Source: Promethearchaeota archaeon (lineage in GTDB: Archaea; Asgardarchaeota; Lokiarchaeia; Sigyniarchaeales; Promethearchaeaceae). From it: a stretch of DNA of 32,000 bases. Shown here one piece after another: positions 21,604-32,000 of the stretch. Every line of letters begins with the position of its first letter. Position 1 is the stretch's first letter. Location of the stretch: the NCBI GenBank assembly GCA_016933055.1, contig JAFGBS010000034.1:1-32000 (forward strand). Direction: 5' to 3'. The translations under genes were made by a program, and so were the position numbers. The notes below the pieces were generated by a model that saw only the letters and a program-made list of their open reading frames with translations, was not told the DNA's origin and ran no database searches.

Positions 21604-24210
21604 GTGACTCAACAGCATTCAGTAACCGTCGGATTGGAAGATGAAGCTAATGCACGAATCAAGCGATTTCGGACTCGATTTTTGAAAGAAATTCCGTATA
21701 TTTCTATCCAACGTGCGAAATTTTATACACAAAAATGGAAGGAACTGAAAAATCGAAATGATTTGTCCCTTAACGAAAAAGTCGCACTTTCAATGATGCA
21801 TGTCTATGAGAACCTGGATTTTCATATCGATGGGGATGATTGGATAGTAGGTGGCTGGACGGAGAACTTCCTCGGAATTCCGATAGATATTGAGAGGGGA
21901 TTATATAATGGTGTTTTTGAAATTGAATTTAGTAAACGAAAAATGCGTCAATTCGCTCTTAAGGGAAATTTAGCATTTGCTCTACATAAAATCAAAACAG
22001 AAGGATTGCGTAATTTACTGAAGAGTTTAAAAGAAAGCAATAAAGTCGGGATTGCTATGCCCGGACTGGGAAATGATACTATTGATACTCGAAAAATTAA
22101 TCCCTATCAAATTAAACCAGAAGATAAGAAAATTCTATTATCAGAATTACTACCATATTGGAAAAATAGTAATATTGCAGATAAATTGATTCAAAAATTC
22201 AATGAATCCGACCTATACCGAGGAGAATTTAAGGAATTTATAAATAATTTACCGCGGAGCACTGCAAAAAACGATGTGGTCACTAATATTGGAGCAGCTT
22301 TGGGTGTTTGGCAAGGACATTTAATACTTGACCACCATACTCCCCTGAAAAAAGGACTTATAGGGATGTTGGAAGACGTTGCGAACTCAATGAAAGAACC
22401 TGATTTAAAATCAGAGGAACTTTCCTTTTTAAAGTCAGTTCAACTTGCGCTGGAAGGTGTTAAAGTATTTGCTAGAAATCTGGCTGAAAAAGTAAGGAAA
22501 GAAACTGAATCTGTTAACGACCCCGAAAGAAAAAGACAACTGGAAGAAATTGAAAAAATTTGCACTAATGTGCCTCTCTATCCCGCCAGAACCTTCAAAG
22601 AAGCGGTACAAGCATATTGGACGGTTAAAACTGCAGTAGAAATAGCCGTTCCTTTTAATGTGCATGCTCCTGGTAGATTGGATCAGATTTTGTATCCTTA
22701 TTACATAAAAGACTTAGAAGAGGGAATTATTACCCGTGATATTGCTCGGGAGATCTTAGAAGAATTATTTTTAAAAATAATGTCACATAACATGCGTCCC
22801 TATTCCAATGCTTCTACGGAATTCAGCCAACGTTACGAGGGTTCGGAACCTGTAACCTTGGCGGGAATCACGAGAAGTGGTAAAGATGCTACAAACCAAT
22901 TAACCTACCTCATTTTAGAAGCAGCGGACCGATCACGTGCTTCCCTCAACTTTGTGGTTCGGATACACCCGAATTCCCCTGAAGACTTATTGTTAGAAGT
23001 GGCCGGCCTGCACAGTAAAGGTTTATCCAGTGTATCCCTCATGAATGACGAGATATGTATTCAAACATTGTTGAAGCGTGGATTTACGCAAGAGGATGCA
23101 AATGATTTTGGAATCACGGGATGCGTTGACATGGTCGCCCCTGGCAAGACAGGCGGAGAAGGATTCTCCTCCATGTTGATGTGTAGTGTTCTTGACTTAG
23201 CTTTGCGTAACGGAAACACTCGAACCCCAATGGGATTGCTAAAAAATGTAGGATTAAAAACAGGCGAACCCGAGGACTTCGAAAATTTTGAACAATTACT
23301 TCACGCGTTCTTCAAACAGGCTGATTTAATGCTAGATCTTATTGTAAAAGGATCTCGGATTCGAGATGAATTATACGCAAAAGAATTACCCGCCCCCCAT
23401 ATTTCTGCATTTATGCAAGGACCTTTAGAATCGAAAAAAGATATAACTTTAGGTGGAGCAATCTACGATGTCGAAGGTATCTTATATATGTGCAGTATTG
23501 CAAATACCATTGATTCTCTTTATGTAATTAAGAAATTAGTGTTTGAGCAACAAAAATTCACTCTTCGGCGCCTCATGGAAGCTGTGGATCATAATTACTC
23601 TCATGGATACGAATGGATACGGAAAGAAATTATGAACTTGAAAGGGAAATGGGGGAATGGAAATCCCGAATCTGATGAACTAGCTTGCAGAATCACCACG
23701 TATCTCTTTGAGCAGACATACAAATATAAAACCTTTAAAGATGGTTTTTTTGCACCTTTCATTAACTCTATGACTACTCATACCTATTCAGGGAGAATTT
23801 CCCTTGCTACTCCCGATGGTCGCTATGCTGGAAAACCCTTCGCTGCCAGTTGCAATCCTTATAATGTGGAAGAACATGGTCCCACGGGAGTATTACGATC
23901 CGTAGCTGCACTTGATTATTCTCATGTTATGGGGTGCGCGGTAAATATTCGAATGCATCCATCCGGTATAGGGAAAACGAAAGAATCCCAGAAGAAATGG
24001 ACATCATTAATACAAACCTACTTTAAATTAGGAGGAGAACAACTTCAACCCACTGTCGTCTCGACTGAAATGCTACGCGAGGCCCAAAAGAATCCAGATC
24101 AGTATCAAGGATTAATTATTAAAGTAGGGGGCTATTCGGCTTATTTTGTGGATCTGGGAAAAGAAATTCAAGATGAGATCATATCACGAACAGAGCATGA
24201 TCGGATTTAG
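21604..24210 (+). CDS. Glycyl radical enzyme (PFL2/dehydratase-like clan), substrate unassigned
   Basis: 868 aa; PGRLDQILYPYY; single-Cys loop ITGCVD; TPDGRYAG; glycyl finger IIKVGGYSAYF. Confidence 0.92.
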   Translation: MTQQHSVTVGLEDEANARIKRFRTRFLKEIPYISIQRAKFYTQKWKELKNRNDLSLNEKVALSMMHVYENLDFHIDGDDWIVGGWTENFLGIPIDIERGLYNGVFEIEFSKRKMRQFALKGNLAFALHKIKTEGLRNLLKSLKESNKVGIAMPGLGNDTIDTRKINPYQIKPEDKKILLSELLPYWKNSNIADKLIQKFNESDLYRGEFKEFINNLPRSTAKNDVVTNIGAALGVWQGHLILDHHTPLKKGLIGMLEDVANSMKEPDLKSEELSFLKSVQLALEGVKVFARNLAEKVRKETESVNDPERKRQLEEIEKICTNVPLYPARTFKEAVQAYWTVKTAVEIAVPFNVHAPGRLDQILYPYYIKDLEEGIITRDIAREILEELFLKIMSHNMRPYSNASTEFSQRYEGSEPVTLAGITRSGKDATNQLTYLILEAADRSRASLNFVVRIHPNSPEDLLLEVAGLHSKGLSSVSLMNDEICIQTLLKRGFTQEDANDFGITGCVDMVAPGKTGGEGFSSMLMCSVLDLALRNGNTRTPMGLLKNVGLKTGEPEDFENFEQLLHAFFKQADLMLDLIVKGSRIRDELYAKELPAPHISAFMQGPLESKKDITLGGAIYDVEGILYMCSIANTIDSLYVIKKLVFEQQKFTLRRLMEAVDHNYSHGYEWIRKEIMNLKGKWGNGNPESDELACRITTYLFEQTYKYKTFKDGFFAPFINSMTTHTYSGRISLATPDGRYAGKPFAASCNPYNVEEHGPTGVLRSVAALDYSHVMGCAVNIRMHPSGIGKTKESQKKWTSLIQTYFKLGGEQLQPTVVSTEMLREAQKNPDQYQGLIIKVGGYSAYFVDLGKEIQDEIISRTEHDRI

Positions 24211-24215
24211 GTATC

Positions 24216-25154
24216 ATGAAACAAAAAGAAATCAATGGTGTCCAAACAGGTGTTATTTTTGATATTGCTCCTTATTCTATTTACGATGGGCCTGGAATTC
24301 GTACTAATATATATCTCAAAGGTTGTCCATTGCACTGTTTGTGGTGTCATAATCCAGAATCTCAAGAATTTACTCCACAATTGTCTTATTTATTTGATAG
24401 ATGCAGTAAATGTGGCACGTGTGAGAAAACCTGCCCGGAGGGTGCGATAACTATCGACTTTGAAACTGGTGTACAGATTATCCAAGATAAATGCACTCTA
24501 TGTGGGCAATGCGTTGAGAATTGCCCTCAAAAGGCATTAGAAATCATTGGTAGAGAGATGACCGTGAACGAAGTAATCAACGAAGTAATCCGCGATAAAT
24601 CTTTTTTCGAAAATTCTGGAGGGGGAATTACCATAACTGGGGGAGAACCTACAGCACAACCAAAATTCTTGCTTGGTTTATTGAGACTACTTAAAAAGAA
24701 TGGAATTCATACAGCAATTGAAACGTGCGGAGCATTTCCCGAAAAATTAATCTCTGAACTTGTAGAAGTGGTGGATTTATTCTTGTTTGATATAAAACAT
24801 CCCAATTCAGAAGTTCATAAACAAGTTACAGGTGTTCCGAGTGATCAAATTCAACAGAATTTTAGAACCATTTATTCATTAGTGGGGGCAAATAGAATCA
24901 TCCCGAGAATCCCCCTCATACCTGGTATCAATATCGAGATCAATGTTATTGATAAAATCATTGCTTTCTTACTAAATGCAAATTATACAGGACCCGTACA
25001 CCTAATGCCCTACAATAAAATGGCAAAAACTAAGTATGAAAAAATCGGAAAATCTTCATCCTACAAGGATATGGGAGAGTTGACCGAAGAGAAATTAAGT
25101 GATATTTTGTCGAGATTTTCAGAGAATAAAATCGAAGTTGTCGTGAATCATTAG
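24216..25154 (+). CDS. Glycyl-radical enzyme activating enzyme (radical SAM with ferredoxin-like insertion)
   Basis: DGPGIRT, GCPLHCLWCHNPES, CSKCGTCEKTCP and CTLCGQCVENCP, GGITITGGEP; 5 nt after the GRE stop. Confidence 0.94.
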   Translation: MKQKEINGVQTGVIFDIAPYSIYDGPGIRTNIYLKGCPLHCLWCHNPESQEFTPQLSYLFDRCSKCGTCEKTCPEGAITIDFETGVQIIQDKCTLCGQCVENCPQKALEIIGREMTVNEVINEVIRDKSFFENSGGGITITGGEPTAQPKFLLGLLRLLKKNGIHTAIETCGAFPEKLISELVEVVDLFLFDIKHPNSEVHKQVTGVPSDQIQQNFRTIYSLVGANRIIPRIPLIPGINIEINVIDKIIAFLLNANYTGPVHLMPYNKMAKTKYEKIGKSSSYKDMGELTEEKLSDILSRFSENKIEVVVNH

Positions 25155-25689: not shown

Positions 25690-26223
25690 TTACTGGATTT
25701 TCCATTCGTACTTCCTAGGACCAAGAAATATTATGAATAAGGCACATACAAGTACAAAGAGACCTCCCCAACCATACCCAAATATTTCGAGTAGAACACC
25801 CATGATCAACATCCAAGGGATCTGGATCTTGTCAATAACCACTACATCGGTAAGTAATTTTTCCCATTCTTTATTTCCGCATAATTCAGAAAACTTAGGT
25901 TTTACCCAAATTATAGAAAGAGCTATTAATACTCCGGCATTAATGAGAGCCCATATTCCACTGCCAATGCGCAAGGTGGTAATATAAACAATACCTAAAA
26001 TAATGTGCACTACACCTGAAACAAGAACGAATATCCATGCATATTTTCCGAGTACAGTCACAAACGGCTCTAAACTCTCCCATGTAGATGAAGAATCGCT
26101 AGAAGATGTCTTAACAGATTTATTTTCTTCAGTAATTTTTGTATCAAATCCACATTTCTCACATACGGGCTTACCGCCCATTTCAGTACCACATTCAGGA
26201 CAGAACTTCGGAATTTTTGCCAT
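25690..26223 (-). CDS. Zinc-ribbon membrane protein
   Basis: FCPECG-x6-VCEKCG, Ser-rich linker, then 3-4 TM helices. ATG 26223 preferred. Confidence 0.8.
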   Translation of the reverse strand: MAKIPKFCPECGTEMGGKPVCEKCGFDTKITEENKSVKTSSSDSSSTWESLEPFVTVLGKYAWIFVLVSGVVHIILGIVYITTLRIGSGIWALINAGVLIALSIIWVKPKFSELCGNKEWEKLLTDVVVIDKIQIPWMLIMGVLLEIFGYGWGGLFVLVCALFIIFLGPRKYEWKIQ

Positions 26224-26374
26224 AATGCTTCCCTTATTTTTCATTGTTTGAAGGTTAAATAAGGTTTAGAATACTTCTAATTAAAGGTATTTAATCAAGT
26301 TAATGTAGAATCAGAATAAAGGAATCCTATTTAATCGTCCAATCTTAATACCATCAGTAACGGGAAGAAAGCTG

Positions 26375-27502: not shown

Positions 27503-27620
27503 AAATCAATGCTTGCAAGAGTATAAAACACTATAATAAAGTTTTTTAGTCTAAAGCAGTCTTAATTATTCGTAAGAGAACAAAAAACAAGAAGTAGAGA
27601 GGTTTTCAAAACGCAACTAC

Positions 27621-28531
27621 ATGAAGAAATAGATGCTTCTAAAATCCTATTCACTGGTCTTGATTCTGCCGGAAAAACAAGCATAATTTTAGCTTTACAG
27701 CGAGAATTCTCACAAATTGCGACTTTACATCCAACTAGGCAAGCTCAACGGAAAATTTTCGAGTTTTTAAGTCACAAAATTGCCGAATGGGATCTCGGTG
27801 GACAGTATAATTATCGGATTTCATATTTAAAAGCGCCCAGCAAATATTTTGATAAAACCAGTGTGTGTATTTACGTAATTGATGTACAAGATGAAAGCAG
27901 AATAGAGGAAAGTCTATCCTATCTTAAAGATGTGGTAGACGAGTTCCGTAAGCTCGAAATTAATCCACCAATTTACATTTTTCTCCATAAATTAGATCCT
28001 ACCTTAAAAAAGAAAAAGCCCATAGAAACTGAAAAACGCAATTTGGATATCCGTAATAAAGCCTTAGAAATAATTGGTGATATTCATGTTGTGGAATTCT
28101 TTAAAACCTCTATTTACGATTTGTGGACGGTAATGACTGCTTTTTCCAAAATTCTGTTGGCAATCTATCCCCAATCCGAACTCATTGATAAGACCATCAA
28201 GGAATTTGCTGAAATGAATAATGCGAAGGCAATTATAGTTCTTGATTCAAATAGTTTGATTATTGGCCAGCATTTCGATAATGATGAAGCAATGACCATT
28301 CTCGAGCATGCTACCCCTTACTTTCTAACACTAAATGATTCTTTTAGTGGAGTAGACGAATCCAAGAAAATGATTGTTGAGCGTGGAGGGATGGTGTATT
28401 TTTTTGACGAAATCAAACTTGAAAAAGGAATTAAACCTTTATTTCTCCTCATTATGAAAGAAGAAAACAATTTTGATGACCAAAAAATCAGGACGTTTAT
28501 GAATATATTTCGGGATTTGATTATCCCTTAA
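27621..28531 (+). CDS. Rag/Arf-like small GTPase with C-terminal roadblock/longin-type domain; true start upstream of the ORF-track call
   Basis: Frame open from 27566: KILFTGLDSAGKTS (G1), HPT (G2), WDLGGQ (G3), HKLD (G4), TSI (G5), then AIIVLDSNSLIIG. No in-frame ATG/GTG/TTG precedes G1; an out-of-frame ATG sits at 27621. Confidence 0.85.
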
Positions 28532-28650
28532 TTGATTCTTTTTCACACAGTTGAAATAAATACGACAATTATTCTTGTTCGATAAAATTATATGAGTTAA
28601 TTTTTTCAATAATATTATCAATAAAGAAGGGGACAAAAGGAGAAATTTAG

Positions 28651-29742
28651 ATGCGAATTTGCACAAATTGCGGAACTACGAATCCCGATAGTACAGGGGC
28701 ATGTAAAAAATGCGGCTCACCTATAAAACCAGTGAATTCAGTTGTAGTAAGAACCAACTACCGTAAAACTAATAAAACAAATCAGAAGACAGAACAACAC
28801 AATGATTTCAATCCAGTTCAACAGCAAATAAATAACCCCAAACATGATCTACCTTCCCAAATGTCCTCAGCTAATACTCCTAAAATCACAAATTTGGAAT
28901 ATAAATTTCATTCCCCAAAAGTGGCGGAAAAAAAGTCCTCAAACCAATCAGGACTTCCTTTGGAACCTATTCCCCCAACTCCAACAGAAAATTTTGTCAT
29001 TCCTCGACCTATCATTCCGAAAAAAAGTAATTATGACAATAGTTCCCCAAGAGAGGAAAACAGCCCCATTGTTTTGTCTAACAAGACCATACAAAACACA
29101 GATCTACAGGCAATTCCTCAAAATTTGCACAGGGAACAAACTCAAAGGGAAAATAGAAGTTCCTATTCAAATCCAATAGATTCCTCTAACCAAATTCCAA
29201 TTATGGCTTTTAGCACTCAATCCATTCAATCACAGCAAATCGAACAAGAAATGACCAGCATTATGGATAGCTTAAGGGTGTCTCCATTACCGAAATCTTC
29301 CTCAAATAAAAAGGGGCATTCTCAAGAAGACGATTCCAAGCTTGATACCACCATTCCAAACTCACTGGATGACATCCTAATAAACCTATCTCAATTGGAT
29401 TTGAATATTGAAGCATCCGCATTGGTTAATGTGGATGGAAACATTATTGCATCTGCTATTTCTGAACGAATAGATGATTTTCTAATTTCCACAATCACTA
29501 ACACATTAGGAACAATTTCTCAAGACGTTATGGCTAGTTTGGAAAGTGGAGATGTTAAATTTGTGTCTATTTTTGCAACAAAAGGCATATTGTTTTTATC
29601 TCCCATCATGAAAAATCTGTTTCTTGTGTTGTATACAAGTTCAGATGCAAAAATAGGCTTGATTAACCTAGCTCGAATGGTAGTAAAGAAGAAAATAGAA
29701 CTTTTTTATGCAAAGCGAAATCTTCGAAAATCACCAGTCTAA
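28651..29742 (+). CDS. Zn ribbon - long low-complexity linker - roadblock/LC7 (MglB/LAMTOR-like) protein
   Basis: CTNCG...CKKCG; ~210 aa rich in S/N/Q/P; C-terminal NIEASALVNVDGNIIASAIS...LFLVLYTSSDAKIGLI. Confidence 0.82.
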   Translation: MRICTNCGTTNPDSTGACKKCGSPIKPVNSVVVRTNYRKTNKTNQKTEQHNDFNPVQQQINNPKHDLPSQMSSANTPKITNLEYKFHSPKVAEKKSSNQSGLPLEPIPPTPTENFVIPRPIIPKKSNYDNSSPREENSPIVLSNKTIQNTDLQAIPQNLHREQTQRENRSSYSNPIDSSNQIPIMAFSTQSIQSQQIEQEMTSIMDSLRVSPLPKSSSNKKGHSQEDDSKLDTTIPNSLDDILINLSQLDLNIEASALVNVDGNIIASAISERIDDFLISTITNTLGTISQDVMASLESGDVKFVSIFATKGILFLSPIMKNLFLVLYTSSDAKIGLINLARMVVKKKIELFYAKRNLRKSPV

Positions 29743-29795
29743 TCCTTTTAGGTTTAATTATCAATATAGATCAAAACACTTCCGACGGATTTGGG

Positions 29796-31160
29796 ATGAT
29801 AGAGCAGGCACATAAGGATTCATTTTTCTACATCGTAACATTCAGCATGTTTTCTGATGTAAAAGGTCCCGTTCCCATATACTGTTATCCGGATTCCGTA
29901 AATATTGATACCCAAGTAGAAATTGCAATGAAATCAGTTTCATTATTAATGGGCGAGGCGGTTTATCAAGCAGGTTTGTCTGATGATCTGAAATATTTTG
30001 GAATACTTCCATTTCCCGAGTTAAATTATATTGGATTAACCTATTTTTTTCTTATACCCGATGAACTGGCGCGAGGGAAATCGAAGGCAGCAACTGCAAC
30101 TCTGGTATTAAAAGAAACAGATGACCATTTCCTTTATAATAATATCCACATACTTCGCATTTTATTTGATAATGCTAGGTTAACCCTAAGAAAAAACCAC
30201 GAACTATCAACCATTAAAGAAACCATTGAGGACCTACGACAAAATATACTAAAAATATGGGATTATAATCAAAAGAATTCTAATTCAAACCAATTGAAAA
30301 TTGTATGCACCGGATTAGATAATGCGGGGAAAACAAGTTATATCGAGATAATTAATTCTGAATTTTCAGAATTGTTGAATGTTGCCCCAAATGAGCAAAA
30401 CTCAAAACATACAGTTTCCCTCATTAAATGGGATTATAAACCAAAGGAAAAATATCATAAATCGTACTTCGAAAATGCGAATTTATATCTATATAACGTT
30501 GACGTGTTGATGTATCTTATTGATGCTCAAAATCCTGACAGATTTGAGGAATCCATGGATCTTTTAAGTAGAATTTTCCATACTCTAGATAAATTAAAGG
30601 TCCATCCTGAAATCCAAATAATTCTGCATAAATTTGATCCAAATATTAATTCTTCCATCAGCAGCAAGATTAACCAATTCAAGAGAACGATATCACAGAT
30701 TCATTCGAATTGGTCCTTACAATTTTTTTACACATCAAAATATGATTCTAATTCGATTAAAAAGAGTTTTATTCATGCAATATCTATTTTTACTTCTGAA
30801 AAGGAACCGTTTTCATCATTAATCCAGCGATTCGTGCGAAAAGTAGATGGTCATTCCGGTACATTTTTAACGCAATATGGTTTGGTGTTGGGTAAATATA
30901 GTAAAACTTCTGAATGGGAGCATTTAACTTGGAATTTAAAAGATGATTTATTCAATATGTTTCAACATAGTGAAGATTTACAAATTCCCTATCTAAAGAT
31001 CCAATTTAATGGTATTACCCTATATTATTATAAAATCCAAATCAATTCTCATGAATTCCATCTAGTATTTGACTCCCCAAAGGATAGGAAAAAAATAAGA
31101 AAAAATATCGATCTTTTCATTACCCAAACCACTCCTCTTGTCCAAGACAATCTAGATTAA
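29796..31160 (+). CDS. Longin/uDENN-like - degenerate Rag-like GTPase - roadblock/longin fusion
   Basis: FSDVKGP and PDELARG in the N-terminal domain; GLDNAGKTS, HKFD and TSKY retained; G2/G3 read PN and WDYKPK; C-terminal GTFLTQYGLVLG domain. Confidence 0.78.
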   Translation: MIEQAHKDSFFYIVTFSMFSDVKGPVPIYCYPDSVNIDTQVEIAMKSVSLLMGEAVYQAGLSDDLKYFGILPFPELNYIGLTYFFLIPDELARGKSKAATATLVLKETDDHFLYNNIHILRILFDNARLTLRKNHELSTIKETIEDLRQNILKIWDYNQKNSNSNQLKIVCTGLDNAGKTSYIEIINSEFSELLNVAPNEQNSKHTVSLIKWDYKPKEKYHKSYFENANLYLYNVDVLMYLIDAQNPDRFEESMDLLSRIFHTLDKLKVHPEIQIILHKFDPNINSSISSKINQFKRTISQIHSNWSLQFFYTSKYDSNSIKKSFIHAISIFTSEKEPFSSLIQRFVRKVDGHSGTFLTQYGLVLGKYSKTSEWEHLTWNLKDDLFNMFQHSEDLQIPYLKIQFNGITLYYYKIQINSHEFHLVFDSPKDRKKIRKNIDLFITQTTPLVQDNLD

Positions 31161-32000
31161 TCCTTTTTTTTAGACCGTTTGTGAATCATTCCAGTACTTA
31201 AAAGTGCTATAATTATTGAACACGCAACAATGAATGTCCCAGTGTGAAAAGGAATTGATTGAGGGGTTTTATAGTCTACTTCGAGATATGTAATATCTAT
31301 GGAGAGCGACCATCTGATATCGTTTGGATTCGAGGTTTTTATATATGGTATAAACCCCCACTCGACAACCGAGCCCTCTATCGATGGTTGAACTCCTCCC
31401 CCTAAATTTTCTCCAATGCAGACAGGAAGATGGATATAATCCATATAATTCCTATATTTTGGATTAGTCTGGGACCATGTTGGATCCATACTAATAAATC
31501 CATACCCCGGAATATAATATTCTACCCAAGCATGGCCTGGGATCGTGCCTATAGTTTCTCCGGAGGAAGTAGTTCCATAGTAGTAGGAAATTTGATATCC
31601 TGCTTCTTTTTTGGTAGCAAGGTAACCATCATCCATAATGACTAACCCGACAACTTTCCGAGCAGGGATTCCTTGGATTCGTAATAGTGTGGTAAATAAA
31701 GTTGAAAAATCACTGCAATCCCCTAATTTCAAAAGATAGGTTAAATAAGCTCCTCTAGAAACCGTTGCATCTTCATCATATTCAATATTTTTCGTAATCC
31801 AATCTAAAATTGCATCCACCTTATCAATAATCGAATTTTTGCCCTCGCAGAGACTGTTCGACAAACTAATTAAACTGGGGTTTTCCACTTGTAGATTATT
31901 CTCCGCCCCAGTTAGATTCTGATAGAGAGGATCAGTAGTATCATAAACCCCTTCATTTCTTTCTCTCAGTTTCCACAAGGTTTCTTTTAATGTAATCTCA
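31157..32000 (-). CDS. Transglutaminase-like (Cys-His-Asp) surface protein with C-terminal TM and basic tail; 5' part outside the window
   Basis: GDCSDFS, LLRIQGIPAR, GHAWVE, MDPTW; tail SIPFHTGTFIVACSIIIALLSTGMIHKRSKKKD; frame stays open to the window edge. Confidence 0.88.
   Translation of the reverse strand, partial: EITLKETLWKLRERNEGVYDTTDPLYQNLTGAENNLQVENPSLISLSNSLCEGKNSIIDKVDAILDWITKNIEYDEDATVSRGAYLTYLLKLGDCSDFSTLFTTLLRIQGIPARKVVGLVIMDDGYLATKKEAGYQISYYYGTTSSGETIGTIPGHAWVEYYIPGYGFISMDPTWSQTNPKYRNYMDYIHLPVCIGENLGGGVQPSIEGSVVEWGFIPYIKTSNPNDIRWSLSIDITYLEVDYKTPQSIPFHTGTFIVACSIIIALLSTGMIHKRSKKKD

Follow-up and report, generated by a model that had tools for sequence, protein, structure and literature searches.

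Three adjacent plus-strand open frames, which we call G1, G2 and G3, lie within 27566-31160 of a 32,000-nucleotide stretch from a Lokiarchaeia-type Asgard archaeon (contig JAFGBS010000034.1 of assembly GCA_016933055.1; hereafter, the window). We read them, with moderate confidence, as a compacted version, specific to one lineage, of a Rag-type GTPase neighbourhood conserved in Lokiarchaeia, in which each product can be given a proposed role. The core of nutrient signalling at the eukaryotic lysosome consists of Rag GTPases, roadblock platforms and longin-domain GTPase-activating proteins (GAPs). Asgard homologs of the Rag, roadblock and longin families have been catalogued. The cluster is made of known parts and is a plausible GTPase-regulator module. 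G1, an ultra-conserved RagA-like GTPase-roadblock protein and an ortholog of LokiRagO, would be the active switch. G3, in which a longin domain of the folliculin/SMCR8/NPRL2 type, with a GP motif and a putative arginine finger, is joined to a second Rag-like G domain and a roadblock, would act through that longin in trans as a GAP-type regulator, with G1 its most likely client. G2 would be a clade-restricted accessory whose roadblock most likely pairs with G1 as an MglB- or LAMTOR-like platform. This reading is carried by domain identities, sequence motifs, a neighbourhood conserved among relatives and a pattern of selection, from which we infer binding partners, GAP activity and cellular output.

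A preliminary description of this DNA had reported three co-directional genes and assigned a domain architecture to each. The three plus-strand frames are present, and all three architectures were borne out by Pfam, profile searches, an AlphaFold2 (AF2) model and Foldseek. The genes are arranged as follows.

27611-28531, plus strand: G1, 306 codons; RagA-like GTPase at about 27641-28168, C-terminal roadblock at about 28169-28528
28651-29742, plus strand: G2; zinc ribbon 28651-28728, low-complexity variable linker 28729-29355, roadblock/LC7 domain 29356-29739
29796-31160, plus strand: G3; folliculin-type longin 29820-30194, linker helix 30195-30287, Rag-like G domain 30288-30794, roadblock 30795-31157

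The G3 longin domain and the degenerate G domain

Three features of G3 recur in the argument.

29865-29870, plus strand: GP motif, G24-P25, at the start of longin strand 2; invariant in 20 orthologs
30072-30074, plus strand: R93 of A92-R93-G94, in the β4-β5 loop; invariant in 20 orthologs and in the nine-member close clade of the window
30429-30446, plus strand: degenerate switch II, WDYKPK in place of WD[LF]GGQ

The G3 longin had been described as folliculin-type, and at the level of the fold it is. Folded alone (predicted local distance difference test, pLDDT, 85.4), it was matched best by VIA-align to a Lokiarchaeota roadblock-longin protein, 8yqg (Z 17.6), then to a chain of the active FLCN-FNIP2 complex (Z 13.6; root-mean-square deviation 2.7 over 135 residues), Lst4 (Z 13.4), C9orf72 (Z 12.8) and NPRL2/3 (Z 10-11). 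DENND1, SNARE, TRAPP and roadblock folds reached at most 9.7, and SNARE, TRAPP and SRX longins at most 9. The top Foldseek matches in the Swiss-Prot part of AFDB were SMCR8, C9orf72, DENND11, NPRL2, LST4 and LST7, and in G3 and SMCR8 alike the GP motif comes 12 residues after the aligned range begins. A GP motif beside an arginine finger is the mark of GAP longins (PMC12290439), a signature with which G24-P25 and the invariant arginine of G3 agree. G24-P25, at the β1-β2 junction, stands at the corresponding position, and R93 is the candidate finger. An Asgard longin class with the GP motif has been reported in the same work, which left its client GTPase open and asked whether it is an Arf or a Rag.

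The closest folds to the G3 longin are found in FLCN-FNIP (Lst7-Lst4), the NPRL2-NPRL3 pair of GATOR1 and C9orf72-SMCR8; G3 keeps their GP motif and has an invariant arginine in its β4-β5 loop. Unlike in those GAP complexes, the G3 longin is fused to a GTPase, it is followed by G and roadblock domains and not by a C-terminal DENN domain, the cluster contains no second gene for a longin partner, its GAP activity is putative, and for the protein of the window the similarity is sub-threshold at the sequence level. Of the Pfam families, Folliculin (PF11704) is nevertheless the only one that every one of the 20 orthologs matches at E <= 1; the best of these matches has an E of 5e-6. An exhaustive search with a longin profile gave 187 representatives at E <= 1e-3; the 10 long matches among the best 150 that were scanned against Pfam comprise five Rag-like GTPase fusions, two Ras-like fusions and three proteins with no family. 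The GAP-type longin thus also occurs fused to Ras/Rab-family GTPases (P0146 and P0150, about 340-350 residues), not only to Rag-like ones.

The AF2 model of full-length G3, folded with 20 orthologs, has a pLDDT of 78.9. It places the longin at residues 12-133 (β-β-α-β-β-β-α-α), followed by the linker helix, the G domain at 165-333 and the roadblock at 336-452 (α-β-β-α-β-β-β-α). Over the G and roadblock domains its best Foldseek matches are 8yl2, RagA/C and Gtr1/2, the last two over about 300 residues. The proposed longin-GTPase-roadblock fusion stands as an architecture, but its G domain cannot be taken for a functional switch, since switches I and II are degenerate. Across the order, switch I of G3 orthologs reads PTKG and their switch II WDLGGQ. 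In the window, switch I, just upstream of switch II, reads PN, a deletion, then EQ, so that the threonine of PT[KR]G is missing, and the DxxGQ of switch II has gone as well. The P-loop (30312-30335) and HKFD (30627-30638) are retained. Within the nine-member close clade, switch II is WDFGGQ, WNFGGQ, WDFGSD, WDFGSH, WNFRDP, WDHEGL or WDYKPK and switch I is equally scrambled, with GxxxxGK and xKxD invariant; to judge from these variants, switch II has decayed independently in different clade members. Because the switches have decayed in this clade and the nucleotide-binding motifs remain, G3 is most likely a regulatory subunit that binds nucleotide without switching.

Why should the longin be so well kept beside a decayed switch? 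Selection has acted very unevenly on the locus. Between the window and three relatives (L041-L043), identity is 92-93% for G1, 78% for HypD, 63-66% for G2, 50-55% for the transglutaminase-like protein described below and 44-46% for G3. Within G3, identity in the close clade falls from 84% in the longin to 52% in the G domain and 45% in the roadblock. The ratios of nonsynonymous to synonymous substitution (dN/dS), which are rough since dS is near saturation, follow the same gradient between two clade members: 0.028 for the longin, 0.10 for the G domain and 0.17 for the roadblock of G3, with 0.02-0.03 for G1, 0.024 for the G2 roadblock and 0.17 for the G2 linker. The longin is thus the most constrained part of G3, and G1 and the G2 roadblock are constrained as strongly as it is. 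Since dN/dS is low in all parts of G3, every part of it is still under selection.

The G1 GTPase and the G2 roadblock protein

The Rag-family character of both G1 and G3, as first described, was upheld. The open frame of G1 spans 27566-28531, and its product scores 104.2 bits against Pfam Gtr1_RagA (cut-off 22; E 9e-30; residues 5-217) and matches PDB entry 8yl2 over its full length (E 4.5e-101). The C-terminal roadblock of G1 is supported by that full-length alignment, by a weak Pfam Robl_LC7 match and by the roadblock topology of the paralogous G3 model. The five GTPase motifs had been called intact, correctly for G1, because the P-loop GLDSAGKT, switch I PTR, switch II WDLGGQ, HKLD and TSIYD are all invariant across 13 orthologs.

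The structure 8YL2, released on 2025-09-10, is titled 'Homo Tetrameric RagA-like small GTPase from Asgard Lokiarchaeota (LokiRagO) in complex with GTP'. Its GTPase-plus-roadblock architecture and its motifs are those of G1. The crystallised sequence is the same as that of the G1 ortholog in L021, from a closed genome of the same family, and the G1 of the window is 56% identical to it. The locus in the source genus of 8YL2 differs in that no G2 was found: the order is G1, a NERD/Mrr-like gene, G3 and a transglutaminase-like gene. Our search of the literature for 8YL2, 8ZLA, 9M28, LokiRagO and LokiRagM found no paper describing them and none on partners of LokiRagO. With the eukaryotic RagA/B-RagC/D pair (Gtr1-Gtr2 in yeast), G1 and the orthologs of G3 have in common the Gtr1_RagA match, HKxD, TSI[YF]D and the C-terminal roadblock. 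The eukaryotic Rags are heterodimers, in contrast to the homotetramer of the solved G1 ortholog, and they have no N-terminal longin, whereas G3 has one, together with degenerate switches in the window.

The start of G1 is unusual. It had been placed at 27621, where the ATG is out of frame and meets a stop after three codons. Codon 27611-27613 is ACG at the position where two close relatives have ATG, followed by QLHEEIDASK; a third has ATT there and TTG three codons upstream. G1 therefore lacks a canonical start despite its 92-93% identity to these relatives and very strong constraint, and the ACG is likely to be a base-call error, a near-cognate initiation codon or a lesion of very recent date. 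We rejected a programmed frameshift from the ATG at 27621, as there is no slippery heptamer and relatives have a plain in-frame ATG ten bases upstream. A pattern scan of the metagenome for further copies of the G1 start region returned nothing.

G2 had been described as a zinc ribbon, a disordered region and a roadblock, and the domains were confirmed, the linker being low-complexity and variable. The zinc ribbon matches Pfam Zn_Ribbon_1 (E 5.5e-5), with four cysteines invariant among orthologs; the middle of the protein varies in length and aligns poorly across them. As a single sequence the roadblock is sub-threshold on Pfam Robl_LC7 (E 3e-4; 20.8 bits against a cut-off of 23), and a profile of the C-terminal region from 11 orthologs matches the solved roadblock proteins 7f8m (E 5e-8), 7yh1 (E 2e-6) and 9jue (E 1.7e-3). 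Matches of this profile to 'Cake' designed propellers were dismissed as repeat artefacts. The roadblock/LC7 domain at the end of G2 is of the type by which small GTPases are regulated or scaffolded, as in MglB of the MglA-MglB pair and LAMTOR2-5 of Ragulator; G2 differs in its additional zinc ribbon and long variable linker and in the lack of a LAMTOR1-like wrapping subunit. The label 'Ragulator' does not suit it, as only the roadblock fold is in common. Ragulator is made up of a LAMTOR1-type scaffold and two roadblock heterodimers; the cluster has a single stand-alone roadblock-bearing gene, and no LAMTOR1-like gene was present among the cluster genes and the neighbours examined.

Gene order among relatives and candidate transcription units

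That the neighbourhood would be conserved in relatives was confirmed by synteny. A G3 ortholog was found in each of the 61 genomes sampled from the order, and G2 in 43 of them: in 37 of 42 genomes of one family, in three of four of another, and only sporadically in the window's own family. In the loci of 10 relatives G1 is followed directly by G2, with G3 on the same strand 1-4 kb away, and the same-strand closeness of the three genes is kept over at least eight genera of one family and part of another. Full contiguity of G1, G2 and G3 is confined to the close clade of the window, with three further contigs (L041-L043), and in all four the gap between G2 and G3 is 50-53 bp. The order in the large sister family is G1, G2, an opposite-strand NERD/Mrr-like gene (often with NrdD), G3 and a convergent transglutaminase-like gene. 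Between G2 and G3, the loci L025-L040 of this family (for example L027:5996-8909) have, beside the NERD/Mrr-like gene, one for an anaerobic ribonucleotide reductase (ATP-cone plus NRDD).

Three elements beside the genes bear on their transcription and linkage.

27532-27564, plus strand: conserved non-coding block 5' of G1; TATA-like TATAATAAA, then GTTTTTTAGTYTAAAGCAGTCTTA
28551-28643, plus strand: G1-G2 spacer elements; AT-rich block 28551-28578 and Shine-Dalgarno-like AAGAAGGGGACAAAAGGAGA at 28624-28643, before the G2 ATG
31157-32000, minus strand: transglutaminase-like membrane protein gene, convergent with G3; Pfam Transglut_core E 7e-22

The three genes had been proposed to form one operon. 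Their contiguity holds in the clade of the window; elsewhere the opposite-strand NERD/Mrr-like gene, often with NrdD, stands between G2 and G3. The block at 27532-27564 aligns with the three related contigs while the flanking intergenic DNA has diverged, and it is a candidate promoter or 5' leader. The 119-bp G1-G2 spacer is also conserved (74% mean column identity in a four-way DNA alignment) and includes a TATA-like block, which suggests that G2 may have its own promoter. Because of these conserved spacer blocks and the TATA-like block 5' of G1, a single transcript for G1-G2-G3 is possible but not indicated, and co-transcription of G2 and G3 is the likelier unit. A scan for sigma-70 promoters and terminators gave background levels, the method not being applicable to archaea.

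The transglutaminase-like gene shares 4 bp with the end of G3, overlapping its stop, and continues past the end of the window. Its convergent pairing with G3 recurs in 16 of 20 relatives' loci from four families, as well as in L041-L043, and is conserved more widely than the linkage of G1 to G3. A second longin-Rag-roadblock paralog of about 500 residues lies divergently within a few kb of G1 in many relatives (L025:483-1994, L027:383-1885 and L036:13783-15318 are examples), where it adjoins ThiL-like and LOG-like genes; in the genome of the window the best candidate for it is on another contig (C27:19548-20573).

The neighbours of the cluster on the contig are HypD and the transglutaminase-like gene, to which NERD and NrdD are added in relatives. 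Further upstream, on the plus strand at 21604-25154, an 868-residue open frame is followed by one resembling a radical-SAM activating enzyme. Between the activase-like frame and HypD, on the minus strand at 25690-26244, is the gene for a small protein with an N-terminal motif like a double zinc ribbon (Pfam DZR, E 0.002) and hydrophobic C-terminal segments.

Candidate partners and alternative readings

Which GTPase, then, might the longin of G3 serve? The same-strand neighbourhood, the compaction of the genes alongside switch decay and the constraint on the longin favour its serving a GTPase other than its own, and G1 is the obvious candidate. The equal constraint on G1 and the G2 roadblock, together with their strict adjacency, would fit pairing between the G1 and G2 roadblocks. 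A narrower form of this idea, put forward tentatively and unlikely as a whole, is that G3 is a dedicated trans-acting GAP for the LokiRagO-type G1, with R93 entering the nucleotide pocket of G1 while the Rag half, nucleotide-binding but switch-dead, and the roadblocks, with G2 as adaptor, hold the pair together. Complex prediction with G3, the G2 roadblock domain and two GTP, in which G1 was scored, gave ipSAE values of 0.00 and 0.17 against a mark of 0.32, and speaks neither for nor against binding.

Several observations weigh against reading the locus as a compacted Rag-type neighbourhood with these roles. Complex formation and GAP activity are predictions for this module. The longin of the window falls short of the Pfam Folliculin cut-off (15.9 bits against 23.3), and only four of the 20 orthologs reach E <= 1e-4; a hidden Markov model of the longin run against PDB sequences gave chance matches only and no solved FLCN or NPRL2 chain, and no evident eukaryotic folliculin was among the 10 long matches from the top 150 of the profile search that were scanned with Pfam. 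The occurrence of the same type of longin on many GTPases favours, at least for the ancestral state, action on the fused G domain in cis or within a homodimer. By its title, the structure of the G1 ortholog is that of a GTP-bound homotetramer, not a heterodimer, and a G1-G3 heterodimer is therefore not required. As for the genes, G1 has no in-frame ATG, GTG or TTG before 27863 in this assembly, no G2 was found in four closed genomes that keep G1 (G008, G020, G030 and G013) or in several genera that keep both G1 and G3, and in most of the order unrelated genes part G3 from G1-G2.

These facts lend themselves to another account, in which only synteny has been inherited: G1 would work alone as a homo-oligomer, the G3 longin would regulate its own G domain in cis or in a homodimer, with G3 drifting towards a non-catalytic scaffold in the clade of the window, and G2 would be unrelated to either. 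We regard this as a real possibility, though not a probable one. It sits well with the 8yl2 homotetramer, with the fusion of G3-type longins to many different GTPases, with the AF2 homodimers reported for longin-GTPases of MK-D1 (PMC10933270 supplement), with the NERD and NrdD genes that part G3 from G1-G2 in most genomes, and with the placement of G2 and G3 on different contigs in one family. It does not readily explain why the three genes have stayed close on one strand through so many genera, why compaction occurs in the same clade as the decay of the G3 switch, or why the longin arginine and GP motif stay the most constrained once catalytic residues are gone from the cis G domain.

Alternatively, the true regulator of G1 may be G2, whose roadblock would serve as an MglB-like GAP or as a platform of the Ragulator kind, with G3 in a separate circuit, possibly with the transglutaminase-like membrane protein. 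The direct adjacency of G1 and G2 wherever G2 exists, the equally very low dN/dS of G1 and the G2 roadblock, and the annotation of G2 homologs in one source as 'predicted regulator of Ras-like GTPase activity (Roadblock/LC7/MglB family)' point this way, as does the wider conservation of the G3-transglutaminase pair relative to G1-G3. We nevertheless find it doubtful: four closed genomes keep G1 where G2 was not found, so G2 is dispensable for G1 function, binding of G1 to G2 is itself inferential, and convergent genes such as G3 and its transglutaminase-like neighbour cannot be co-transcribed. The fullest form of the preliminary description, a compact Rag-Ragulator-folliculin complex forming an ancestral nutrient-signalling switch, is very improbable: although one cluster brings together the three fold classes of the eukaryotic system, the locus lends nutrient signalling no support, its neighbours (HypD, NERD, NrdD, transglutaminase-like) including no transporter, sensor or LAMTOR1-like gene and only the roadblock fold linking G2 to the LAMTOR proteins, and no TOR-kinase homolog was found in Asgard archaea in a 2020 preprint (10.1101/2020.10.19.343400).

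We return to the compacted Rag-type neighbourhood, the reading that we prefer, in the light of earlier work. Longin-GTPase-roadblock fusions and Rag-like GTPases have been described in MK-D1 (Tran et al. 2024, PMC10933270), in which GTPase genes are generally not in operons with roadblock or longin genes; the authors reported one operon of two Rag-like GTPases and noted that genome layout seldom helps to pair GTPases with regulators. The architecture of G3 and its class, with GP motif and arginine, have already been described in general terms as Asgard longin-GTPase-roadblock fusions and 'Folliculin/SMCR8 longin' proteins (PMC10933270; 10.1101/2020.10.19.343400; PMC12290439). A different operon, encoding a LAMTOR1-like roadblock protein, a Rab-like GTPase and a DENN protein, has been noted (Liu et al., preprint 10.1101/2020.10.19.343400); its GTPase is Rab-like, whereas G1 is Rag-like. 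The conserved G1/G2/G3 neighbourhood and the decay of the G3 switch are not described in any of these three sources.

The locus offers a concrete, testable match, in which a GAP-type longin on a Rag-like domain is found beside an intact and extremely conserved Rag-like GTPase with a crystallised ortholog. In one clade the longin protein has lost its own switch and kept the candidate catalytic arginine, which makes it a natural separation-of-function variant. If G3 does act as a trans-GAP for G1, the two would be a prokaryotic Rag-plus-longin-GAP pair older than eukaryotes, and they would tell us which GTPase the GAP-type longins of Asgard archaea serve.

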